DNA of 64,000 nucleotides from Candidatus Poribacteria bacterium (GCA_965215015.1 OZ244042.1:2368001-2432000), one strand, 5' to 3'; positions 10,998 through 46,996 are shown, counted from the stretch's first letter. Made by a program: numbers and translations. The notes: generated from the sequence alone by a model not told the origin.

Positions 10998-11841
10998 GCT
11001 CGTCTCCTTTGGATTTCTCCTCGTTGCACGGCAGGTAGAACCCAGCGAAGCGTCCAATCTGATTAAGCCAATATAATCAGATCTCTGTGCTCCGGAGTCA
11101 CCTGCCAATTCAGCCGGAATCTTGTCGTAGCCTGTGCCTTTCTCGTAATCGTGCTCTGGCCCAAAATCGAATGTTGAAGTACCTGCCACCTGCTGTCTCC
11201 TTTGGCGATAAAAACGTTGTTTCGGGAATCAATGGGGGAATCTTGTATGCCTTCCTGAACCCCCAATCTGTATCTCTATGAGCGACTGAGAGTTGAGCTA
11301 AACTAAATCCCTTTGATAGGTCAAGGATAGTCCTGCAACCTGAAGGATTATGTGATATCTCCTTCTGTTCCTCAGATCCGGTGGTTGTGTGATGGCGCGC
11401 AGTGTCTTGCGCGGAGGATTTGAAGGAGTTTCCCGGTGTTGCCTCGGGTGCTCTCTCTATCAGCGGATTCAACGCTCGGGTGCGTTTTGGTCCTGTATGG
11501 TTAAACATCTCTCATGTACCTCCTTTTTGGTTTATCAGTTAATAAGTTGAGAGTAAGAATCTGGAGAAAAATTATAGTGCTATCGGTTCCTGCATCTCAG
11601 GACTTCATCATTAACAACTATAGTATAACTCCAATGTTGCTAAAAACTTCATGAAAAAATTAAGATAATTTATTTAATGGATGTGCATAATTCGAGACAC
11701 ATTATAGCGGAATTCAAGCGAGGGTGCCTGCGTCAATCGTAGGGGCTTGGTTGCCAAGCTGGGACCCCACCCCCTACGCATTGAGAGGTGTTGAGAAGTA
11801 TACGTATCAAAACCTATTTATGAGCCCCCTCGGTTATTTAA

Positions 11842-12083
11842 GAGGGGCTCATAAAGTAGTAGGCACACTCGACGTGCCGTAAACCCCATAACCATTATGG
11901 CATATGGCTTGGCTAACGCTTAACTTTCATTAAACTCACACCCCTCATTGGGAAAAAGCAAAATATCCCCCTCCGTCGGTGGGGGATATTGCCTCATCTC
12001 CCGCCTGAGGCCCCTATCTGTATTCGTGTTTTCTGTGTCATCTGCTGCAGCCGCGATTCAGACAATAATTATGAGCACCCCTC
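11842..12083. mobile_element. MITE (GAGGGG family), inverted relative to 10024-10263; marks the left edge of the island
   Basis: GAGGGGCTCATAAA ... ATTATGAGCACCCCTC; reverse-complement similarity to 10024-10263. Confidence 0.7.
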
Positions 12084-12127
12084 ATTTATTTTATGCTAAC
12101 TCATTTACCTACATCTATTATTCTAAA

Positions 12128-12279
12128 TGTCTGAATTAGGATTTTCAGGATTAACCGCTTGAACCCCCTGCACCTTCTGGTTCTGAAAGGATCTAGGGGG
12201 TTCATTTGAACCCCTGCACATTCATGTTCTTAGCATGAATGTTGTAAGATCTTAACCGCTTTGAATGTTGACAAATCCC
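12128..12279. repeat. Hairpin mosaic A upstream of recombinase
   Basis: TGTCTGAATTAGGAT, AACCGCTTGAACCCC, AGGATCTAGGGGGTTCATTTGAACCCC, CACATTCATG..CATGAATGTTGTAAGATCT. Confidence 0.8.
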
Positions 12280-12292
12280 AAAGGAGACCATC

Positions 12293-13294
12293 ATGAATCC
12301 ATTAGCAGTCAAGCATATACCGCTTGAACCCCTCGTCTGCCGCCACGAGGACACACTGGATGAAAAGGGGCGCCTCAAAGATCTACAACCTTCTGGTTTG
12401 AAGCCAGAAGGCTTGAGGATCCTCCGTATCGCTGTGGCGTGGGATGCGTTATCGGAAAACACCAAGACGGCTTATCAGAAGGCGTATAAACGGCTTTCTC
12501 GCCGTAGCGTGGTTGTTGAAGATCTAACGGATGAATCACTCGCCTTGTGTATCTCGCAACTGGACGCCGATGGTCTATCGCCAGCCACGCTCTCACTTAC
12601 TGTCGCTTCGGTCAAGTGGTATTTCAAACATATCATGCGCTCTCCAGCCAGATGGACAACCACCGATAAGCGCCTGCTCACCATCAAGCGTGATACTGAG
12701 AACAGGGGCAATGGGCAAGTCGACGGTCTTTCGTGGGCGGATGTGTATTTCGTGTGCAGGTTCGCTGAATCTGAACAAAGCATCAAGGGCTATCGGGATT
12801 CTGCATTGATACGGCTCATGAGTGATTGCCTGTTGCGAATCTCTGAAGCGGTGGCAGTCAACCTTGAGGATATCCAAGAAAATGCCTTAATCGTCCAGTC
12901 GAGTAAGACGGATCAACAAGGCGAGGGTGTGGCGTTGTATATCGGGGATCGGACAATGCAGATGATACGCGGATACTGCACCGAAGCAAACATAACCACA
13001 GGGGCGTTGTTCAGGCGTATCGTGCGGGGCGATCATATCCAATCCACGAGGCTCACGGTCAATGGAGCTCGCTACGCTATCAAAGAATGGGCTTCTGTCG
13101 CTGGCATTGATGGCTTTATCTCTGGGCATTCGCTTCGTGTGGGGGCTGCGGTGTCTTTATCTCAAGCGGGGGCGTCGGTCGTGGAGATGCAACAAGCGGG
13201 CAGATGGAAATCACTACAGATGCCAGCGCATTATGCACGGGTAAAGGAAGCGGAAAAGGTGGCTGTGGCTCGGTATCGGTATAAAAAGGGGTAG
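12293..13294 (+). CDS. Tyrosine recombinase, Cre-like
   Basis: AAGGAG RBS; RDSALIRLMSDCLLRISE (Arg), SKTDQ (Lys), GHSLRVG (HxxR), GRW, MPAHY (Tyr); N-terminal SENTKTAY helix. Confidence 0.92.
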   Translation: MNPLAVKHIPLEPLVCRHEDTLDEKGRLKDLQPSGLKPEGLRILRIAVAWDALSENTKTAYQKAYKRLSRRSVVVEDLTDESLALCISQLDADGLSPATLSLTVASVKWYFKHIMRSPARWTTTDKRLLTIKRDTENRGNGQVDGLSWADVYFVCRFAESEQSIKGYRDSALIRLMSDCLLRISEAVAVNLEDIQENALIVQSSKTDQQGEGVALYIGDRTMQMIRGYCTEANITTGALFRRIVRGDHIQSTRLTVNGARYAIKEWASVAGIDGFISGHSLRVGAAVSLSQAGASVVEMQQAGRWKSLQMPAHYARVKEAEKVAVARYRYKKG

Positions 13295-13395
13295 AAAGGA
13301 TCTATCACATTCGGACTTGTTAGGGCTCGCCCTAACAAGCTGTTTTTAACATGAATGTTGAAGATCTAGGATTGTTAGGCTGGAATCTAACAATC
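13295..13395. repeat. Hairpin mosaic B, starting immediately after the recombinase stop
   Basis: Reverse complement of the 16869-16915 unit, interrupted at 13313-13340 by CTTGTTAGGGC-TC-GCCCTAACAAG; followed by GATTGTTAGG..TCTAACAATC. Confidence 0.85.
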
Positions 13396-13531
13396 TTCTG
13401 TTATTTTACCCTTTTTCGCCATTCGTTTCTACCTAAAACAAAAGGGCTGCGCGATTCAGGATTACCGATGATGCAGCCCTTTTTCTGTTTTTAGATTCTG
13501 TTTTGGGCGGAACGATGGCAATAAGGAGAAG

Positions 13532-13807
13532 ATGATGTTTTCAACAAAAAGACGGTTGATGGCTATGGTCCTAATCGTTGGGTTCTTGGTAGCTAGTTTT
13601 GGGCTGTTCCCACCGCCGGCTTACAGCGATGATTGTTCAACAGCCACAAACAACTGTTGTGCTGCTATCGCTTTAGCAGCCTATTATTGTAACCTATATG
13701 GTAGTGGCAGTGGGGTGTGTGATGCATGGCAAAGGTACGCCGGGCAGAAGTGTTCAACCGCGGCTGAGATATGTGGCTATTCTGCCTATCATCTGTGCTA
13801 TAATTAG
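13532..13807 (+). CDS. Small secreted cysteine-rich peptide (8 Cys)
   Basis: AAGGAG RBS; basic plus hydrophobic signal peptide ending AYS; mature part C-x6-CC-x9-C-x9-C-x10-C-x6-C-x7-C. Confidence 0.75.
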   Translation: MMFSTKRRLMAMVLIVGFLVASFGLFPPPAYSDDCSTATNNCCAAIALAAYYCNLYGSGSGVCDAWQRYAGQKCSTAAEICGYSAYHLCYN

Positions 13808-13858
13808 CCCTCACTGTTTTCTCCCGCTGTAGCAGAGATTTTTTCCCTTACCTTTCCA

Positions 13859-13982
13859 AAAGATCTTAGGGGTTCAAGAGGTTCCGCGGTTTTAAAACCG
13901 CTTGAACCCCTTCCTCTTAACCCCTGCACATTCATGTTTTAAACCGCTAACAATCCCTCACCTAACAACCGCACCTAACAGG
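13859..13982. repeat. Hairpin mosaic C
   Basis: AGATCT-AGGGGTTCAAG..GCGGTTTTAAAACCGC-TTGAACCCCT, CACATTCATGTT, three CTAACA units. Confidence 0.8.
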
Positions 13983-14023
13983 CGTGGTTATAAATCTTAT
14001 TGAAACATAAAGGGAGATCGCCG

Positions 14024-15163
14024 ATGAAAACCAAGTTGATACCGAATCTTTCAATGAAGTTGAAAAAATCAATCTATGTGTCCGGTGCCCTGTTGGCAGG
14101 AATCGTCGTTTGTATGTCTGTATTTTTTGGGCTTCGGGAGCATAAGGAGAGGGAACTTCAGGGGAAAAGTAACTTCACTCTCCAAAACAATGGGATCGCC
14201 GCCGCGCCCCTAACAATGCCGCGTGGGAATTCAGAGGAAGAGTTACAGACGCCCGCAGAAAGAATTGTGCAGCACACAAAAAATAATTTTGTGTCTCTGT
14301 ATAGCGAAGATGAACTTGCAACGCAAGAGAGACAAAAAATGCTTGAGGTTATGAATTCGCCGGAGTACCTTAAATACATGAAAAACGCGCTGGAAAAAGG
14401 TTATAGGTTCCGTCATTCTGCTGAATTTTGGGAATCACACGGGTTTCCGTTAGAGAGGGATATGTTTAAGGATGCCTTCCGAAAAGAGTTTCCGACTGGG
14501 GTGCCTGAGATGCGTCTGAAAATGGCGAATCTATTTCTTTCCCAAGAACCGGTAGACCTGACTAACCCAAGCGCAGCGGCTTTGCAACGTCAAGAGGTGT
14601 TCCTTAAGTTTATCAAAGAAGAAGGTCGAAATATAGGCTGGCTGGGGGGACAGTTCGGGATCGATCTTGATGGTGCTATGCTAGCAGGGTGGGAAGAAGG
14701 ATCTGAGAGCACCCCTGCTTTTGTCTGGATAACTGATGTTCAAAGACATGCGGCGAGTATTGTCGCAGCCGCAGAAACGACCGGAGTCGATACACCTGAA
14801 GCACAGGTATCAGCTCCTTCATGGGATATGTCCTCCGTCATGGAAAGCCCCTCTGCATCTGATAGCGAAATGTCAGTGCCCCTCCCCCCGCTTGATACAT
14901 CAACTGACGCCGAGATTGAGGCAGCCACGAGACCTCAACCGCTCGATATGCCCCAAAATCACCGCCCTGATATGCCGGGCGAGATTCAAAGTAATCTTGA
15001 AGCATCCCTGAAATCGCAGTTTTCACCAGAGCAGTTCGATCGGGCGATGTCTACTTTAGAGCAGTATGGACCCGAAGAAGGGCTCCGCCGTCTACGTCAA
15101 AGCGATCCAGACTTTGCCAAGCAAGTAGAACAACATCGTAACCGAGAGGAGGTTTCCAAATGA
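14024..15163 (+). CDS. Membrane-anchored hypothetical protein with C-terminal FDRAMSTLEQYGPEEGLRRLR motif
   Basis: GGGAG RBS at ATG 14024; one N-terminal TM; Pro/Ser/acidic linker; helical C-terminal module. Confidence 0.8.
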   Translation: MKTKLIPNLSMKLKKSIYVSGALLAGIVVCMSVFFGLREHKERELQGKSNFTLQNNGIAAAPLTMPRGNSEEELQTPAERIVQHTKNNFVSLYSEDELATQERQKMLEVMNSPEYLKYMKNALEKGYRFRHSAEFWESHGFPLERDMFKDAFRKEFPTGVPEMRLKMANLFLSQEPVDLTNPSAAALQRQEVFLKFIKEEGRNIGWLGGQFGIDLDGAMLAGWEEGSESTPAFVWITDVQRHAASIVAAAETTGVDTPEAQVSAPSWDMSSVMESPSASDSEMSVPLPPLDTSTDAEIEAATRPQPLDMPQNHRPDMPGEIQSNLEASLKSQFSPEQFDRAMSTLEQYGPEEGLRRLRQSDPDFAKQVEQHRNREEVSK

Positions 15164-15393
15164 AAGTGTTTATGATAGCGTGGGTAGTGTTTTGTTTCTT
15201 GGTAATTGCGGGGTTGTTCATTGCCTATGCAACAGACAACTTTCCCGGTGTCCCCGCTCCCCAACAAGTTGATATGGAAACAGAGGAAGAGTGTTCACCA
15301 TGTGAGAAGAATCTGAAACGTCTCAAAGAGGCGAGGGAACGGTGGGAGCGTGAGCGTAAAGCCCAAGCCGTTGACCGTGGAGATGCGGAATGA
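15160..15393 (+). CDS. Small membrane-anchored protein with CxxC
   Basis: GGAGG RBS, ATGA overlap with upstream gene; TM followed by EEECSPC and a coiled coil. Confidence 0.75.
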   Translation: MKVFMIAWVVFCFLVIAGLFIAYATDNFPGVPAPQQVDMETEEECSPCEKNLKRLKEARERWERERKAQAVDRGDAE

Positions 15394-15908
15394 ATCACAA
15401 GCAGAAGTATTTCTACGCCTCATTGGGCGCGGTGATTATGCTAGTTGGGATTTTGGTTGGTTCTATCGTTTCACCCCCTCTGATCGCACAGCGGAAGGAC
15501 ATGCCTGGGGATATAAAGTGTACCTCACTAATAGTGGTTGATAAGTCAGGTGAGCCTGCGATTGTCTTACGCACCGATGAGGCTTTGGGTAACGGTGTCG
15601 TCCTTCACAATCCTGTGGGTACTCCTGCGGTGCTCTTGGTCGCTGATGAAACGGGAAACAGTATCGCTGTTGCCGATAAGTCAGGAGAGGCTGCAGTGCT
15701 GTTACGTACGAGTGAATTAGCGAATCGTGTTATCGTCCGCAGTCCTTTAGGCAAAGATGGGGTTCGTCTTTCTGCGGGTAAAGTTGCCAATCGGGTAACG
15801 GTATCCAATCCTGAGGAGGCAAATGCTGTGCAGTTATACGCCGATGAAGTGGCCAATCGTGTTACCGTTCACAATCGGGTAGGTATCATCAGGTGGCAAG
15901 CACCGTAA
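15390..15908 (+). CDS. Membrane-anchored hypothetical with ~22-aa beta-strand repeats
   Basis: ATGA overlap; TM; repeats DKSGEPAIVLRT / DKSGEAAVLLRT / ANRV x3; ends WQAP. Confidence 0.75.
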   Translation: MNHKQKYFYASLGAVIMLVGILVGSIVSPPLIAQRKDMPGDIKCTSLIVVDKSGEPAIVLRTDEALGNGVVLHNPVGTPAVLLVADETGNSIAVADKSGEAAVLLRTSELANRVIVRSPLGKDGVRLSAGKVANRVTVSNPEEANAVQLYADEVANRVTVHNRVGIIRWQAP

Positions 15909-15925
15909 CCGTCAATCCTGATAAT

Positions 15926-16132
15926 TTGTCTGAATCAGGATGGCTTGTTAGGCTTTGCCTAACAAGCGTCAGGATTAAAGGATTTTCAGGAGATTGTTAG
16001 GATCTTGTAGGCTGCCTATCAGACGCGCTAACAGGATTGTTAGGTATCACCTAACAATCTGCTAACAGACGGTTCTTAACCGCCTGAAGGATTTACCACA
16101 TTCATGTTTCAAACATGAATGTTGACAAATCC
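15926..16132. repeat. Hairpin mosaic D
   Basis: TTGTCTGAATCAGGAT unit split at 15942-15968 by GCTTGTTAGGC-TTT-GCCTAACAAGC; GATTGTTAGGT-ATC-ACCTAACAATC; ACATTCATGTTT-C-AAACATGAATGT. Confidence 0.85.
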
Positions 16133-16157
16133 CATAAGTTTGGGGGAAGATTTAACC

Positions 16158-17011
16158 ATGAAATTAAAAAGCGAAAAATTACTTCTGCTTCTACCAATCG
16201 TTGTTATTGCAAATTCGATGGCACTATATCTTTGGATAAAACTTGGGTGGACTGTACCGACTCTCATTGCCACATTATTTGGGATTGGTACGATATTATC
16301 CTTCGTTTTGATTAATCGATTCTATGAATACCTACAAGACAATAGGTATTTCATAATTGGAAGTGCGATTTTTGTATTTATGGTAGGGATGTATCTCTGG
16401 AGAGGTAAAGGAATTCCCTATATCGGTATATCATTTGCCTTGCTTGGTATGTGTCTTTTATTTATGGTGGTCTTGAAGGGGCTGTGGCGGAATATTTGCT
16501 GTATCGCTGCTCTGGTTCTCTGTGGAATCGTTTTCATCTTTGGAGATAAAGAGGTTAACCAGGCCCCCACTCCTGCCATAGAGGAAGTCGGGGTGATAAA
16601 GCCGGGGAGTGCCGCCGCCGTTTCACGCGACATGGCCGATATGATGCACCGGATATTCCCCTCTGAACAACTTGAGGACCCAGCGGTTCAGGAAATAATA
16701 GAGGTTATAGCCTCCGATTCATTTCAGAAAAAGTTGAAACAACACAATCCGAAGACAATGGATGAATACATCCATTTCATTGTGTCCCACGGATTTACTG
16801 ATCTTTCAGAGGCAGATTTTCACAAAGTCCTTGATGCTGGGTACCAAGTTGCCGAAGCGGATTACAAAAAAGATCTTCAACATTCATGTTAAAAACATGA
16901 ATGTGATAGATCCTTGCCAAAAACTCTGGTAAAACCCCTGAGACTGAAGACGATGTGATGAAACACCGATTGGTTACAGCGATGGAGGAGTTCGGGTTGC
17001 TGGGGGCATAG
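16158..17011 (+). pseudogene. Multi-TM protein, distantly similar to the 14024 gene in its soluble part; broken by a 47-bp hairpin insert
   Basis: ORF stops inside the insert at 16892; removing 16869-16915 restores YK-AKNSGKTPETEDDVMKHRL; EQLEDPAVQEIIEVIAS resembles DELATQERQKMLEVMNS. Confidence 0.7.
16869..16915. repeat. 47-bp AGATCT-ended hairpin unit inserted in a CDS
   Basis: AAAGATCTTCAACATTCATGTTAAAAACATGAATGTGATAGATCCTT. Confidence 0.85.
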
Positions 17012-17262
17012 AGGATTTTATGAAGGATCGTAATAATGTTACGCATTTAATAGTTTTAGACTTAACAATCTATTGTTTTTGCTATTGTTTTTTTTGATAT
17101 TCTATGAGTGAACTTGCCAATCGTTGTGAATAATTGATGTCGATTCTAAGTCGCCTTACCTATAGGAGCCATTTGATGTCTAACCTGTTGCACAACACAG
17201 TTTCGCTGTGCATGGCGAAATTTCTGACTCACCATCTACATGGCAAAAGGAGGTGAGCCTTT

Positions 17263-17448
17263 ATGCCACGCATACAACGCGTTAAGTCTGACTCGCGTAA
17301 AAATGGCACACTCGTCAGAACTCATTTACGGACGGACCCTGACGGAAATCGGTATAATCATCTCAAACCACCCACCCAAAAGCACATTCAAGATTATTTT
17401 GACAGGAAACTGGGAATACGCAGCCCTCGCCCCCGACGGCGCAGATAA
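17263..17448 (+). CDS. Small basic passenger protein (RKNGT-x-V-x2-H-x-RT-x-PDGN motif)
   Basis: AAGGAGGTG RBS; second intact copy at 21836-22018. Confidence 0.7.
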   Translation: MPRIQRVKSDSRKNGTLVRTHLRTDPDGNRYNHLKPPTQKHIQDYFDRKLGIRSPRPRRRR

Positions 17449-17463
17449 TTCTATCCGGGGATG

Positions 17464-18348
17464 CTACACAAAACACTCCCTGATAAACCTCTCAAACCCC
17501 TTGGGGCGGCCCCGATTGTTCCACTTAAAACAGGCTTCGGCCAGGTAAAGTGGTGTCCATTTCTTACTGTAATGATGATGCGTTCCGTGAAATGCTCGCT
17601 TGAGCATTGACCCAAACCCCTCAATCGTGTTCGTATGAGCGATGCCTTTGACATACTCTTTCTCACCGTGCTTCACCGTCAAATGAGGCATTAATTCCGA
17701 AGCACCTTCGTAACTCTGGAACTCATCTGTCATGAGAACCGATTGCTGGGGGTTAACAACATCTTTGATAAACCCAATAACACCCTGACGGGTTAAATCT
17801 GTGGCGATACGGGCAATAACCTTACCCGTTCGTTCTATTGCACCGATAACCGCTGTCTTTGCTGTCCCTCTACCCCGTTTCGGTGCAGGAGGCAGGTTGT
17901 CGTCATCATCTTTTCTTCTGCGAGGTTTGCCCCCCAAGTAAGTTTCATCACATTCGATAATGCCTTTCAAGAAAGTGGTGCCCCGGCATTCCATCTCTTT
18001 CCTTATTCGTTGCATCATATACCAGGTAGACATCTGATTCAGCCCAAGATGCCGGGCAAGTTGACAACTGGACAGGCTTTTCTTGGCATCTACCATCAAG
18101 GCGATCCCAACAAACCACTTAGTAAGTGAAATCTTAGTCCCTTGAAACAGCGTGCCAGGCAAAACATTGAAACTCGACTTGCATAGGTGGCAATTCCATC
18201 GTCCAATTTTACCATTTTCACGTTTTCTTGCCACTCTATCACTCCCACAATGGGGACACTCCGGAGCATCTCCCCATCGCACTTGTTCGAGATGCTTAAT
18301 ACAATTTTCATGAGTCGAAAATCGCTCGACAATCTCAAGTAAATTCAT
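17464..18348 (-). CDS. IS1595 (ISXO2-like) transposase
   Basis: Zn ribbon CPHC..CHLC; IIECDETYLGG, LMTDE, HTNTIEG, YLAEACFKWN. Confidence 0.93.
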   Translation of the reverse strand: MNLLEIVERFSTHENCIKHLEQVRWGDAPECPHCGSDRVARKRENGKIGRWNCHLCKSSFNVLPGTLFQGTKISLTKWFVGIALMVDAKKSLSSCQLARHLGLNQMSTWYMMQRIRKEMECRGTTFLKGIIECDETYLGGKPRRRKDDDDNLPPAPKRGRGTAKTAVIGAIERTGKVIARIATDLTRQGVIGFIKDVVNPQQSVLMTDEFQSYEGASELMPHLTVKHGEKEYVKGIAHTNTIEGFGSMLKRAFHGTHHHYSKKWTPLYLAEACFKWNNRGRPKGFERFIRECFV

Positions 18349-18471
18349 ACTTGACTCCTTTATTCATGCGGGTTGAGACGATATGATTATCTCAAAAATA
18401 TGATTATCTCAAGAATACGCCAAAAAGTCAAGCCTTTATCTGTTAAGTGCGTAATTATTTTTGTTCTATGT

Positions 18472-18684
18472 TCATTTTTTAGGGCAGGTGGGTTTCCCAC
18501 TTGCCCTTCTTCTCTTTAGGCAGTCGGTCATCTTTTCGACGGACTGCCGTTTTCGTCCGCTACGAGTAACCATCTTTGGCAAAGGGATGGTGTCAGGTAG
18601 CATACGAATCAGTTGCCCGACAAATCCTAACACCATGATGGCAACCAGAACTGTGTGGGATGGGCTCCATGCAGAAAAGTCCAT
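18472..18684 (-). CDS. Small membrane protein, possibly truncated
   Basis: AAGGAG RBS; N-terminal hydrophobic helix; ends next to the IS end. Confidence 0.5.
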   Translation of the reverse strand: MDFSAWSPSHTVLVAIMVLGFVGQLIRMLPDTIPLPKMVTRSGRKRQSVEKMTDCLKRRRASGKPTCPKK

Positions 18685-18715
18685 AAGTGTCTCCTTTTTG
18701 TGGATCTCAATTGCT

Positions 18716-19163
18716 TGCAGAGGTTGTAAACCTAGTTGTCTGAATCAGGATTTTCAAACGCCTGTTAGCTCTCTGTTAGCGGAACGCTACCAGACGCGCT
18801 ACCAGACGGGATTATGAGATTTTCAGGATGAGGAGCTTGGGGGATTATACTTCATTCGGTTATTAACAGAAGCCTAACAACCCCTCTGTTAGCGAAAGCG
18901 CTAATAGCTTGTGAGGCTTTGAAGGTGCAGGGGTTCAAGCGGTTTTCAGGGGTTCCGCGGTTTTAAAACCGCTTGAACCCCTACCGCGGAACCCCCTAGA
19001 TCTTCTGACAAGAGGCTAACAAGCGGTTCTAAACCTGGTCCCCCTCCTGAGAATCCTTTAATCCTGAGAATCCTGATTCAGACAATTACCAGGATTGTGA
19101 GGTGTTCACTGCCTGTTAGCGCGTCTGATAGGCTTTGCCTAACAGAGAGGCTAACAGACGGTT
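18716..19163. repeat. Hairpin mosaic E (largest, all unit families)
   Basis: TTGTCTGAATCAGG unit split at 18757-18808 by doubly nested TGTTAGC hairpins; interleaved GGGGTTCAAGCGG/GGGGTTCCGCGG with CCGCTTGAACCCC/CCGCGGAACCCC; inverted CCTGATTCAGACAA. Confidence 0.85.
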
Positions 19164-19165
19164 GG

Positions 19166-19885
19166 CTACGCTTCTTTCACGATTTTTGTGACTTTTCCGA
19201 TGATGGTCATTTCTTCGGTGACGATGATGTGGTTGTAGTTCGGGTTGGTCGGGGCAAGCAGCGCGTGTCCGTTGCGGAGGTAGAGCTTCTTGCACGTCAC
19301 TTCGCCTTCGACGTAGGCTATGACGGTCGTGCCGTTGTTCCAGTTGTTGCCGGGTTGAATCAGTAGGAGGTCGCCGTCTTCGATGCGCGGTGCCATCGAC
19401 ATGCCTCTGGCGCGGAGGAAGAATTCGCCCGGACCGAGGGTGTCTTTGTGCATGTATTCATACCCGACGACATCGCCGGGGTCCACCTGATCGAGGGTGC
19501 CGCACGGGATGTCGCCGAGAATGGGGACCGCAACGAAGTCGTCATCATCGACGGGGACAGCGTGTTCGAGGCGCATGGTCTCGCCTTGGGCTAAAGGGTC
19601 CTGTTTGCGGGGCGGTGTGGGTTGTCGGTCCGGGGGAATTTGACCGGGGGTCGAGTCTTCTCCGTAGAATAGATCACTAATAGTGAAATTTTGATGGCTC
19701 ACTTTGGTTAGGTATTTCGCGATTGCAAACAGTATTTGGGGATCAATCGCTTTGGCTTGATTGTTTACAATTTTGGAGATGTAGGATTGGGGCACGTTGG
19801 CAGCTTTTGCCATTTCGGTCTGTTTGGCTTTGATGCCTCGGTTTTTTAGAGCTGTGATTATTTCTTTGATGCGGTATTTTAACAA
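19166..19885 (-). CDS. LexA/CI-like repressor (XRE HTH plus S24 peptidase)
   Basis: QTEMAKAANVPQSYISKI HTH; IPCG cleavage site; GMSMAP (Ser); VTCKKL (Lys); TTG start with AGGAG. Confidence 0.92.
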   Translation of the reverse strand: MLKYRIKEIITALKNRGIKAKQTEMAKAANVPQSYISKIVNNQAKAIDPQILFAIAKYLTKVSHQNFTISDLFYGEDSTPGQIPPDRQPTPPRKQDPLAQGETMRLEHAVPVDDDDFVAVPILGDIPCGTLDQVDPGDVVGYEYMHKDTLGPGEFFLRARGMSMAPRIEDGDLLLIQPGNNWNNGTTVIAYVEGEVTCKKLYLRNGHALLAPTNPNYNHIIVTEEMTIIGKVTKIVKEA

Positions 19886-20111
19886 GATGTTTCACTCCTA
19901 TCTTGCTTCCGCCGTTATCACCATCGGATAATTTGCCGTGTTAGGTGAATTTTGTTGGCAGTCTGGTATCCATTGGCTATAATATACCCCTGATGGAAGT
20001 GTGTAGTAGGCTTTACGAAAAACAATAATAATGGTTTCACTAACTCTTATTATGACACACTTCCGCTGATTTTTCAAGGGGTATCTGGTAATGGGGGTTG
20101 ACGCTTAGATT

Positions 20112-20339
20112 ATGAAATTGACCATTGAGACGCTTATTAATGAGTCGGGGTTCCGTAGGAATTATATCTCGGAGCTATTGGGTGTCTCGGAGCAGGCATT
20201 GTCCTATAAGGTGAAAGGGCGACGCCGGTTTACGGAACTGGAGTTGAGGCAGCTGGCTATGGTGCTGGAGGTGCACCTGCGGATTGTGCGGCGGGCGGCG
20301 GGTGCCTCCCACTCGCGCTCTTCCCCGAACGACGAATGA
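20112..20339 (+). CDS. Cro-like HTH protein, divergent from the repressor
   Basis: YISELLGVSEQALSYKVKGRRRFTELE. Confidence 0.8.
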   Translation: MKLTIETLINESGFRRNYISELLGVSEQALSYKVKGRRRFTELELRQLAMVLEVHLRIVRRAAGASHSRSSPNDE

Positions 20340-20348
20340 GGTTGGCAG

Positions 20349-20654
20349 TTGTCTGAATCAGGATTCTCAGGATTTGAGGATTTTCAGGAGAAGATCTATA
20401 ACCTTCAGGTTTACAACCAGAAGGTTAGAAGATCTTGGGGATTTAACTTTCAACGGTTTTTAACCGTCTGTTAGCGCGTCTGATAGGCTTTGCCTAACAG
20501 AGGGCTAACAGACGCAGGATCTAGGGGGTTCATTTGAACCCCCTAGATCCTTAGACGCGAACAAGTTAAAACCAGAAGGCTTGAAGATCTTGGAGGTATA
20601 AATCCTCAAAATCCTTTAATCCTGAGAATCCTGATTCAGACAAGATTGTTAGGC
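20349..20654. repeat. Hairpin mosaic F, compound palindrome
   Basis: Outer inverted TTGTCTGAATCAGGATTCTCAGGATT pair enclosing an AGATCT unit (20391-20436), a nested TGTTAG unit (20465-20514) and a perfect 17-bp IR (20516-20551). Confidence 0.88.
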
Positions 20655-20671
20655 GGAAGGAAAAGGGGCTG

Positions 20672-20950
20672 ATGGAATTATCATATTTGAAGGCAATCGG
20701 GGTTGGGATTCCGAGCGGGTATACGATAGCCAATGGGGCAATGACCGCTGATAGCGAGCATGTCTACTTTGCAGCGGCGCATGGGAGCGCGCCGAAGTTG
20801 TTAATCTTCAACATGACGGGCAAGCGGATAGAGACAGCGGAATTCAGTATCCACGCCTTGCCGTCGAGTCGGTCGTTTGATGCCGTTGCGATTGATGCCG
20901 AAAATCTGTATCTGCTATCAAACAGCGAGGCGTTGGGGGTACTGGCAGAC
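20672..20950 (+). pseudogene. 5' fragment of a hypothetical (beta-propeller-like) gene
   Basis: Purine-rich RBS and ATG; protein-like to ~GVLADV, then reads into the antisense of the opposing gene; junction approximate. Confidence 0.45.
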
Positions 20951-21779
20951 GTTTTCCCATATTCATTGTTGGAATCGAGTGCTATCACTTTATCGAAGTC
21001 CTCAATGGCTTTGTCATATTCACCTTTGCCGAGGGATTCTAGCGCACTTCTTTCAATCTCCTTTTCATCGGGGCGTTGCTGCATATCTACAAACATCAGA
21101 ACTGGGAGTACGACACAACAGAGGAATATGATAAAAAGGAATAGGCAATAACCTGATAAGGTTACAATCCTCTTGGTATCTCGAAGTTCTGCAAGTGCCC
21201 CAAAATAGAGACGGTAAATAAAGAATAATAAACAGAAACTGAGGGAAGAAATAATTACCAAAAAAACAACCCACCAAATAAACCCTTCTATAGAATTTAG
21301 AAGGCTAAGCATACCACGAAAATCGAAAGACGGTAATTTGGATAAAAGGAGGAAGAAATATATCCCGAAACCGATGAGTCGGAGCCTGTTGTGCCTAAGT
21401 CTTTTTGAAATAGGTAATTTCTCATCTCTTTGGGCTATCTTCTTGTGTCCTTTTACCCCCAATTTGCACTCGCACCTGAAAATCCTTTAATCCTGAGAAT
21501 CCTGATATTGTTTCAAGATGCCAGTGGACGACTTGTGCGACACGACTCACGTTGAATATCCATATCAGGGATATTATCACACACCCAGACCAGACTAAGT
21601 AATGTAAAGTCTCGGCGTTTTGAAATTCCACCCCCAAAAACTTCTTAACCTCGCCATATAAGACCAATAAGCCAATAACAAGAGGGGGTAGCATCAGGCG
21701 GCTGGTTGCATAGACCTCCGAAATAGATTGGCGCACCGCATTTCCCACCTCTTTGTATAGTTCTAACGACAATTTATTT
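20945..21779 (-). pseudogene. Membrane protein with TPR, frameshifted and truncated at both ends
   Basis: ORFs 21422-21784 and 20764-21462 fuse if 21475-21505 is removed; TPR GEYDKAIEDFDKVIALD; 5' end abuts the MITE. Confidence 0.6.
21475..21505 (-). repeat. 31-bp TCAGGATT unit inserted in a CDS
   Basis: TCAGGATTCTCAGGATTAAAGGATTTTCAGG, matching the units at ~19046-19078 and ~15969-15990. Confidence 0.8.
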
Positions 21780-22240
21780 CGCACTTAACAGATAAAGGCT
21801 TGATTTTTGCCGTATTTTTGAGATAATCATATCGTCTAAACCCGCATGAATAGAGGTCTGCGTATTCCCAATTTCCTGTCAAAATAATCTTGAATGTGCT
21901 TTTGGGTGGGTGGTTTGAGATGATTATACGGATTTCCGTCAGGTTTCGTCCGTAAATGAGGTCTGACGAGTGTGCCATTTTTACGCGAGTCAGACTTAAG
22001 GCGTTGTATGCGTGGCATAAAGGCTCACCTCCTTTTGCCATGTAGATGGTGAGTCAGAAATTTCGCCATGCACAGCGAAACTGTGTTGTGCAACAGGTTA
22101 GACATCAAATGGCTCCTATAGGTAAGGCGACTGAGAATCGACATCAATTATTCACAACGATTGGCAAGTTCACTCATAGAATATCAAAAAAAACAATAGC
22201 AAAAACAATAGATTGTTAAGTCTAAAACTATTAAATGCGT
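21780..22240 (-). mobile_element. Non-autonomous deletion derivative of the IS1595 element (transposase removed)
   Basis: Reverse complement equals ~17041-17428 joined to ~18361-18451. Confidence 0.88.
21836..22018 (-). CDS. Second copy of the small basic passenger protein
   Basis: Near-identical to 17263-17448; C-terminus altered at the deletion junction. Confidence 0.65.
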   Translation of the reverse strand: MPRIQRLKSDSRKNGTLVRPHLRTKPDGNPYNHLKPPTQKHIQDYFDRKLGIRRPLFMRV

Positions 22241-22721
22241 TTTAGAAAACCGTCAGTTAGTCCTAATATACAAGAGGAGTATTTTCTGTGATCGATTAGC
22301 CGTTGCTTTTCCACCTCGGTCAGAAGTCTAGCTGTCAGATATGCAGCACCACCCGTTAGATTTGCAATCCCCAGTTTTATCTCTCATAGGGGAATTGCAT
22401 CTGTTATAGGAATTAGGCAGTTGAGCAATCAGGGGGACAATCTGTGTCGGAAATAGGAGATGATTTTCGCAATCGAAGTGCGTAAGTCCTACACAATATC
22501 TACATGCAATTACCTTTTTATCTCTAATAGCCCTGAACTGATCGATAGAGATTGTTGTTGACGGAAAAATAAGGACAGAGTAAAATGACTTATTATATAG
22601 AGACAATAGTGGGCAATTAGGTTTAATAATTGTCAAAAGATACCCGCTAGCCCCAGTGGTATAGGAACTTAGAAGATCCACGGGGAGATTCGAGAGAGAA
22701 ACGGTAGAGTTGGAGCAGCAG

Positions 22722-46371: not shown

Positions 46372-46996
46372 TGACGTACTCCCAAAGCGGAAGCATTGGG
46401 AGTCTTATATGCTATGCTAGCCATGTTTACATAGATGCCAGTGAAACCGGACACCTATCGGGGACGCCATCACCCTAACTACAGGACTCAACAAGCCTCC
46501 TGATACTTTGTTCATACTTTGTTCCAAAGGTTGATTGCACCCACGACGTAATAGATTTTCCCCTTGTCCATAAATAGGGGAGTCTGCTTTTCAGATGGGG
46601 AAATGCCTCTCTGAGCATTCGTGAAGTATAGCCTTTGATTCGTGTAATTGTAGAAGTAATTGCCTTTTGAGGCGGCAAACCGGCTACAAGGTGAACATGA
46701 TCAGGCATAACCTTTATTTCATGACAATATAGCCATAGTTGCTTTGTTGTTCATGAATCAAAGTGTTGAGTCGTAATGCTATATCATGGCTCAAAACAGG
46801 TCTACGGTACTTAGTACACCAGTCGCATCTATACACTGCTGACCTTTGTGGTTATATTGAGTATCTGCATAAAATAAACCTTGCCTTTCTATTAATTATA
46901 TGCAAATATTATAACATAAAAAAATACTATAAAATTAAAAAAATGCGAAAGCACTAAAGCACTATTGTATCCCAAACCTAAAGCATTAGGATTTAG
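46372..46996 (-). pseudogene. tnpA: IS200/IS605 remnant with broken TnpA
   Basis: WCTKYRRPVL, MPDHVHL (HUH), IKGYTSR, LWTRG across frameshifts; subterminal hairpins CTCCCAA..TTGGGAG and ATCC..GGAT; no tnpB. Confidence 0.78.

Follow-up and report, generated by a model that had tools for sequence, protein, structure and literature searches.

The stretch of DNA considered here, the window, covers 64,000 nucleotides of the genome of a Candidatus Poribacteria bacterium (GCA_965215015.1 OZ244042.1:2368001-2432000). It contains an island with the gene of a Cre-like tyrosine recombinase, followed by five open reading frames (ORFs), a copy of the insertion sequence IS1595, a repressor gene and a small Cro-like gene (Table 1). 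A comparison with PHROGs gave integrase and repressor-type matches alone. Our subject is the spacers of this island. An earlier note, made from the sequence alone, had described six intergenic tracts as mosaics of small palindromic units, labelled P1 to P5, and had proposed the recombinase as the candidate enzyme for their movement. Direct reading and a repeat search confirmed the mosaic structure of all six tracts. The units are hairpins, they nest in each other, they are discretely present or absent among paralogous copies, they have expanded in this lineage, and they cluster at one recombinase subfamily. The feature is real and unusual; it is a variation on a known but rare kind.

The tracts and their nested units

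Folded as single-stranded DNA the six tracts have z-scores of -3.29, -6.59, -4.17, -6.56, -9.58, and -16.81. No dinucleotide shuffle folded as well as any of the six. An Rfam search returned nothing above chance, and phage and plasmid DNA collections contained no match. Assembly artefacts, a possibility which the earlier note had left standing, are ruled out because contigs of two independent studies (four runs) reproduce the tracts. The segments 13266-13909, 13882-15239, 15344-15956, and 15962-17069 are spanned with 0-3 differences. The contigs break at units and the joints resemble paralogous loci, with no indel at the tracts.

As claimed previously, units reside within units. A P3 (13313-13340) divides a P1. 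Both halves of this P1 correspond to the uninterrupted copy at 16869-16915, and the right one, 13341-13367, shows 100% complementarity to 16871-16897. Arms of P4, a terminal repeat of a miniature inverted-repeat transposable element (MITE), are split by P3 at 15942-15968 and within 18757-18809, as evident from reading and from the repeat search. P3 is found within P3 at 19112-19161 and 20467-20514. P1 and P2 do share their termini, as seen in a complete P1 (20391-20437) and a complete P2 (20516-20552). The grouping into five families was correct insofar as all unit types were recovered. P5, however, is no family of its own but a nested part of P2: the P5 pattern has 10 matches against 3 for the control, and its exact 16-mer occurs only twice, each time nested in P2. 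The recombinase ORF contains a P1 unit, too (12377-12422), which had been overlooked. In another ORF, 16119-16892, the stop codon (16890-16892) is located inside the loop of a P1a (16869-16915); therefore, the P1 unit supplies the last residues and the stop of this ORF.

Table 1. Genes and palindromic units of the island, numbered from the first nucleotide of the window
Feature	Position	Strand	Basis and remarks
P4 arm (MITE terminal repeat), start of the recombinase 5' leader	12128-12152	+	repeat search; also heads the leader of the paralogous copies B and E
P2/P5 composite, right half	12153-12167	+	15-mer 5 times in genome, 4 of these in island
P1-like leader hairpin	12169-12279	+	arms 12169-12188 and 12259-12279
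Units in tip of leader hairpin	P2 12188-12214; P1a 12215-12253	+	repeat families; comparison with copies B and E
Tyrosine recombinase gene, Cre-like, 333 aa	12293-13294	+	PF00589 at 1.4e-16
P2/P5 right-half patch in recombinase ORF	12319-12332	+	replaces copy B sequence here; repeat search and A/B alignment
P1b in frame inside recombinase ORF	12377-12422	+	gap of ~48 nt in copy B
P1a split by 28-nt P3	13298-13367	+	halves 13298-13312 and 13341-13367, P3 13313-13340; fold shows nested hairpins
Solo P3 hairpin	13369-13395	+	
Five same-strand ORFs without family matches	13532-16892		
P2 with P1/P2-type left terminus, P5 in tip	13861-13910	+	P5 13886-13901; repeat search, fold
P1a left half, then three P3 half-sites	13921-13980	+	P1a half 13921-13939; P3 half-sites 13947-13952, 13962-13967, 13975-13980
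P4 arm split by 27-nt P3	15926-15992	+	P3 15942-15968; empty P4 copies with matching flanks; composite recurs in copy B
Nested P3 block and P5-like hairpin	15993-16083	+	block includes 16014-16035 and 16035-16059; P5-like 16069-16083; repeat search, fold
P1a, variant terminus pair	16087-16132	+	directly upstream of ORF 16119-16892
Complete uninterrupted P1a	16869-16915	+	fold z -6.56
IS1595 copy	17040-18452		transposase 17464-18348
P4 arm split by nested P3 units	18736-18830	+	P3 units 18761-18809; simpler paralogue exists
Interleaved P2/P5 block	18930-19004	+	shared terminus at end
P4 arm	19044-19091	-	inverted partner of 18736 onward and of 20343-20390
P3 nested in P3	19112-19161	+	
CI/LexA-like repressor gene	19166-19885		
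Small Cro-like helix-turn-helix gene	20112-20339		
295-nt MITE, P4 terminal inverted repeats of 41 nt	20349-20643	+	repeats 93% complementary; fold -92.8 kcal/mol, z -16.81
Contents of MITE 20349-20643	P1b 20391-20437; P5b 20453-20467; P3 in P3 20467-20514; complete P2 20516-20552; P1b right half ~20571-20592		
P4 arm fragment	21474-21506	-	repeat search

Distribution and mobility of the units

The genome searched is a single contig of 5.94 Mb. In it a strict P3 pattern has 61 matches and a relaxed one 73, versus 0 and 21 for two control palindromes. Perfect stems of at least 9 bp are present in 38 of the 73 matches where about 1.1 are expected. The hairpins are mostly 19-25 nt long, within a range of 19-28 nt. 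An alignment of 27 copies shows a 6-bp core which is constant bar one mismatch. Two inner and three outer stem pairs covary (38 cells versus 17 ± 3; score 0.327 versus 0.115), exceeding all of 500 shuffles as well as the slid controls. The inner sequences of the 61 strict copies comprise 40 distinct ones, and subfamilies of at most five copies are located at unrelated loci. In a census of perfect hairpins with stems of at least 10 bp the P3 type ranks third; the two families above it are unrelated. For the window alone, confinement of the units to the island is roughly correct (17 of 19 P3 7-mers). Genome-wide it is false since P3 is present at 48 loci. The loop orientation of P3 showed no replichore bias (p = 0.49, n = 38), a comparison of low power in which the origin was inferred from GC skew only.

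The P3 pattern has 55 matches here versus 0-18 in 30 relatives. A P3 model, for which at most the best 50 candidates per genome were scored, yielded at least 42 matches here and matched 12 of 150 other genomes of the phylum, one of them (G018) 20 times and the other eleven 1-7 times. In G018, 10 of 11 retrieved copies are positioned inside one carrier repeat, i.e., they hitch-hike. P3 is a low-copy element in the relatives and is expanded in this genome. Uninterrupted P1 occurs seven times in the genome and in none of the 30 relatives, and all four strict P2 copies of the genome are in the island. P1 and P2 are palindromes of 35-47 nt with common termini which, among the genomes searched, are found in this one only; their centre of distribution is formed by the copies of one Cre-like recombinase gene. 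A loose pattern for the P1 terminus was dropped as it was dominated by noise from coding sequences. The reversed control of the P3 search was itself expanded in four genomes (G011, G015, G026, and G029), with 38-65 matches versus 1-23 in most others. Because of this expansion, other species of the group seem to hold small palindrome families of their own.

P4 is of another kind. At up to two mismatches it has 346 copies in the genome, and 41 inverted pairs are 100-200 bp apart. Apart from an unrelated IS1595, no transposase ORF was found between P4 pairs, and no autonomous element bounded by P4 was found either. Of 30 relatives in the order, 28 contain P4; genomes of the genus have 16-61 copies each, and in another family the number reaches 234. 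P4 is, on this evidence, the terminal inverted repeat of a MITE superfamily which is old and spread across the order. At the MITE ends 20349/20643 no target duplication was evident on reading. Elsewhere in the genome, units of about 110-150 nt form long tandem arrays, and every unit starts with a P4-type arm (1699440-1701419, 4109252-4110143, 730850-733408, and others); some of the arrays alternate in orientation with a period of about 143 nt and more than 25 copies. In the island the genes of the CI-like repressor and the Cro-like protein stand between two mutually inverted P4 arms (19044-20390), which are 48 nt long, 90% complementary and separated by 1251 nt. A MITE-type element seems to carry this gene pair as cargo.

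Do single units move? Paralogous copies were used as empty sites because the intergenic DNA of other species has diverged too far. The filled and empty pairs agree with the claim of the earlier note that units insert individually and prefer each other as targets; hairpins are preferred as well. In a MITE family of the host a P3 of about 27 nt is present in two copies where three others have a 2-nt hairpin loop. Two further loci have clean P3 insertions of 24 nt and about 30 nt. Within a single MITE family P3 is present in three copies, each time with a different inner sequence; among the "empty" copies two keep half a core and one keeps none. Further, identical units of 25-28 nt, with the inner sequence in common, are present in unrelated carriers, i.e., P4, P1, host MITEs, and solo sites.

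The recombinase paralogues provide a second set of comparisons. They have a common 5' leader which consists of a P4 arm, a P2 hairpin, an inverse P4 arm, and a P1-like hairpin ahead of the ribosome-binding site; the combination of P4, P2, and P1-like hairpin is present in four copies. In copies B and E the arms of the leader hairpin are joined by about 8 nt, and in the island copy about 70 nt (P2 and P1) are in the tip. The leader of copy B has P3 within P4 where copies E and D have 2 nt. Copy C carries P1, with P3 in P3, at the point at which the gene is truncated, and the ORF of copy D contains a P2-like palindrome of 51 nt. At a further locus a composite P1 of about 168 nt interrupts a segment which is continuous in locus B. 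At locus B a small ORF is positioned between two P1 units. The P1b in the ORF of the island recombinase corresponds to a gap of 48 columns in copy B. It adds 16 residues and is present in one of 20 aligned family members. Near it a patch of unchanged length in the same ORF is a P2/P5 half motif.

Most of the targets are tips of existing palindromes; others are further units and ORFs. As claimed, target duplications are absent: at the P3, P1, and P2 junctions compared among paralogues none was found, and the units replace 0-2 nt.

Several neighbouring repeats belong to the description of the locus. The IS1595 copy and an inverted partial second copy at 21780-22243 have 30-nt ends in common, and at least five more copies exist elsewhere in the genome. 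Directly to the left of the island, at 11666-12092, are two other MITE-like repeat families with dozens of copies each at 70-90% identity genome-wide. The ORFs of 13532-15908 have paralogous sets at 2226300-2229300, 5241800-5245200, and 1397000-1400400 with 65-83% DNA identity. In the set at 2226300-2229300 the spacers are plain and free of units. P3/P5 units and a remnant of the recombinase are found in the set at 5241800-5245200.

The recombinase and its association with the units

In an alignment of 20 family members R182, K205, H279, R282, W305, and Y314 are invariant. These columns we take to be the catalytic set of tyrosine recombinases. The Trp column presumably is a Cre-like feature; most relatives have His there. 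The only solved relatives identified by sequence at E <= 0.001 are Cre and its variants, over the C-terminal 50 residues. An AlphaFold model (mean pLDDT 71.8) has Cre as its top match in a fold search (E = 2.7e-10, about 304 columns, 17-19% identity), followed by XerA, the integron integrase (2a3v), and XerD. Residue set, with Trp included, and predicted two-domain fold are of the Cre type. Judged by sequence and model the label "Cre-like" is fair, yet the protein is a distant relative. An integron integrase is not indicated: the island protein has no match to TIGR02249, and the best match in the genome, located elsewhere, reaches 49.9 bits versus a cut-off of 265.

The protein family has 2187 members at E <= 1e-10, and those with a name are annotated as tyrosine recombinase or XerD of Candidatus Poribacteria. 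Proteins with 72-82% identity exist (P0003-P0008). For the island protein, a tblastn search of its own genome gave 24 matches. Copies or fragments at 70-100% identity, which constitute the subfamily, are limited to this genome among the 31 searched. The relatives in the searched genomes and at 26 genome loci reach 44-62% identity over long matches; scans of genome and metagenome contigs gave relatives of at most 74%, with full-length ones at no more than 44%. A group of loci (L002-L027) with relatives at 28-48% over long matches derives from metagenome-assembled genomes (MAGs) labelled Poribacteria, Latescibacterota, Acidobacteriota, Binatia, Dehalococcoidia, Trueperaceae, and Gammaproteobacteria. 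Such relatives are thus also present in MAGs of several other sponge-typical phyla. This distribution suggests an exchange inside a single habitat.

The units cluster with this subfamily, which is the outcome of the co-localisation count that the earlier note had called for. Outside the island, 12 of 66 P3 copies are within 2.5 kb of a subfamily copy, against 0.43 expected, and they cover six of seven loci. Near ten loci of distant recombinase paralogues P3 was absent (0/10). The clustering persists when the availability of targets is controlled, because a comparison of P4 sites only gives it, too: outside the island P3 is found within 75 nt after P4 at three of seven independent copies near a subfamily gene, versus one of 332 elsewhere (Fisher p = 2e-5). 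The P3 units near recombinase genes differ in position and inner sequence; they are therefore separate events and not one inherited insertion. The counts of P3 and P1 in other genomes, given above, agree with the clustering.

Other enzymes were searched for. No second recombination enzyme recurs in P3-rich loci; the recurrent ORFs encode dehydrogenases or are unannotated. No intact Y1 transposase of the type associated with repetitive extragenic palindromes (REP), termed RAYT, was found in the genome; the earlier statement on HUH/RAYT enzymes had concerned the island. Two PF01797 matches were identified and both are remnants, a 77-aa frame of IS200/RAYT type at 46475-46708 of the window and a 74-aa frame in a match, at 1533127-1533438, which has an internal stop. 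The units are not evenly spread in the manner of ordinary REPs. Statistically, the proposal of the recombinase as the enzyme has gained from these data; it is unproven, and we advance it tentatively. Position and dyad shape make P1 a candidate lox-type site.

Known systems, rival explanations and significance

To call the system undescribed, as the earlier note did, was too strong. Small dispersed repeats (SDRs) of the Nostocaceae were reportedly introduced by Elhai et al. in 2008 (Genome Res 18:1484) as "very small mobile repeated elements", and mosaics of REP and of bacterial interspersed mosaic elements (BIME) are known as well. SDRs are dispersed hairpins of about 20-28 nt inside other repeats, seemingly self-mobile, with no known enzyme and expanded in particular lineages. 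P3 resembles them: it measures mostly 19-25 nt, is dispersed and nested, and shows evidence of independent insertion. Unlike SDRs, P3 has an invariant core, a variable inner and outer stem, and a strong spatial link to one tyrosine-recombinase subfamily. Nostocaceae SDRs are cited in passages of PMC3116915 and PMC5861425. REP, BIME, and REPINs, according to excerpts of PMC2817692, PMC3333891, and PMC3116915, are intergenic palindromes in mosaics without target duplication, and a single-stranded hairpin is presumed to be the active form. The units share short imperfect palindromes in many copies (61-73 for P3 at 48 loci) and the arrangement in mosaics. REPs have a conserved tetranucleotide at the hairpin foot where cleavage takes place; in P3 the outer stem is seen to vary. 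The units differ from REPs in that no intact RAYT was found, copy numbers are lower, units nest and enter ORFs, and they cluster at a Cre/Xer-type tyrosine recombinase. In behaviour the units come closest to Nostocaceae SDRs, in layout to REP/BIME mosaics.

In integrons, as outlined in parts of PMC2727003 and PMC6393395, a tyrosine recombinase is likewise situated beside same-strand ORFs parted by imperfect palindromes with conserved ends and a variable inside, and a folded single strand is a plausible substrate. Here, however, the protein is not IntI, and the units insert without cargo. Integrons have one attC-type site per cassette, with paired end boxes and extrahelical bases, and the tracts seem to differ in that they contain several nested units of different families. 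For a tyrosine recombinase that acts on hairpins, attC recombination is the nearest mechanistic analogue. In the case of Cre/loxP of phage P1, Cre is the nearest solved relative by sequence and fold, and the P1 unit is a dyad with a short centre which adjoins the gene. Yet identity is 17-19%, no single pair of sites marks an excisable element, and many sites are degenerate, interrupted, or halved. MITEs are similar in that P4-bounded units of 100-300 nt have terminal inverted repeats and many copies. Insertion sequences that target REP loops similarly use the tip of a palindrome as insertion target (excerpts of PMC1525189 and PMC12288879). In contrast to both, the inserting element is only a palindrome of 20-47 nt without a coding partner, and no transposase is found between P4 pairs. 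The literature search, with supplements outside its scope, found no report that links nested micro-hairpin elements with a tyrosine recombinase or Cre-like enzyme, nor one on such elements in Poribacteria.

Most likely the tracts are mosaics of SDR/BIME-like character in which miniature palindromic elements that differ in age are combined, and the units probably are individually mobile micro-elements, now or until recently. Their landing sites would be the tips of hairpins already present, other units, and now and then ORFs, with 0-2 nt replaced and no duplication. Insertion may happen at target palindromes that are extruded as single-stranded hairpins, and the activity appears to be concentrated in or near recombinase-bearing islands. 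Several points weigh against mobility. The search for orthologous empty sites with 1.2 kb around a solo P3 matched 19 of 19 other genomes of the genus in coding parts only (83-89% identity), with the intergenic part unaligned. All filled and empty pairs are paralogous, and deletion or gene conversion instead of insertion could in principle have produced them. No presence/absence polymorphism was detected in contigs, which hide rare variants, and two studies are identical over 13266-13909. The half core in some "empty" copies fits either excision footprints or a de novo inverted duplication, and copy-and-paste from a few masters would not usually yield inner parts as diverse as those of P3. One may then consider the units to be immobile, either products of local palindrome mutation (by template switching, inverted duplication, or gene conversion between hairpins) or conserved hairpins, regulatory or RNA ones, which multiplied only with their carriers. 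Arms that stay complementary as the sequence varies, the half cores, the same-length patch in an ORF, the hitch-hiking in G018, and the absent polymorphism are compatible with this. We consider it unlikely, given identical units of 25-28 nt in unrelated carriers, discrete boundaries versus multiple empty paralogues, and the absence of an Rfam family. Highly improbable is a spread as ordinary REP/BIME by a RAYT (Y1 HUH) encoded elsewhere or lost, with an incidental link to the island: small intergenic palindromes in mosaics without target duplication, the two PF01797 matches, and other REP-type hairpin families in the genome are in line with it, yet both matches are remnants, the units are unevenly distributed and clustered at one recombinase subfamily, and P3 loops have no replichore bias, at the low power of that comparison. 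The likelihood that repeat assembly created the tracts is close to nil. In this repeat-rich region short-read contigs are broken and chimerically joined at units, yet four runs from two studies agree on the tracts, differing at 0-3 positions over 13266-13909 and 15962-17069.

If the units are mobile micro-elements, which enzyme moves them? The recombinase subfamily would be the best single candidate; alternatively, it may be a favoured neighbour or target. That the Cre-like recombinase itself moves the units, either as folded hairpins in the manner of attC or as lox-like duplexes, with P1 and P2 as sites at the cassette junctions of an integron-like platform, is possible but doubtful. Specifically this subfamily shows the association in space and in lineage, four copies have the leader of P4, P2, and P1-like hairpin, and P1 consists of two inverted arms about a short centre. 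Five downstream ORFs on one strand have tracts between them, the small ORF of locus B is flanked by two P1, no other recombination enzyme recurs in P3-rich loci, and the fold is nearest to Cre with the integron integrase 2a3v also matched. Other observations speak against it. Of the 66 non-island P3 copies 54 are more than 5 kb away from any recombinase copy, and two relatives (G002 and G003) have 5 and 6 P3-like matches with no recombinase relative at E <= 1e-20. Among 48 loci (470,652 bases) around more distant recombinase relatives in other genomes and metagenomes none had P1, P2, P3, or P5; P4 alone was found, in L032. Nine loci of distant relatives had no consistent palindromes. Tyrosine-recombinase chemistry needs a resident partner site and alone does not explain the insertion of a 25-nt palindrome; P1 and P2 also occur as simple insertions in ORFs which show no such site. 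The tracts are heterogeneous mosaics and do not seem to offer one site per junction, and the protein scores below the integron-integrase model. Lastly, units break recombinase copies C and D, and such disrupted copies fit a target or neighbour as well as an agent. A scheme in which the Cre-like subfamily of a sponge symbiont would mobilise hairpins of 20-50 nt on folded single strands, as "site-only" micro-cassettes, we regard as rather unlikely.

To our knowledge, only very few lineages have mobile units of 20-50 nt, and the mechanism of such units was never solved. This genome combines filled and empty pairs, several unit families of different ages, ORF insertions that keep the frame, and a specific, statistically strong, and testable association with one recombinase subfamily. 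Should the association be causal, hairpin-directed tyrosine recombination would extend beyond integrons, and a first handle on the mechanism of micro-elements would be available. Should it not be causal, the locus documents how such units build and reshape spacers and the leaders of mobile elements in repeat-rich symbiont genomes. If the recombinase indeed acts on folded units, it would be the first enzyme for SDR-like micro-elements and a minimal relative of attC recombination, the products of which would reshape the spacers between genes and even extend genes by in-frame peptide segments.

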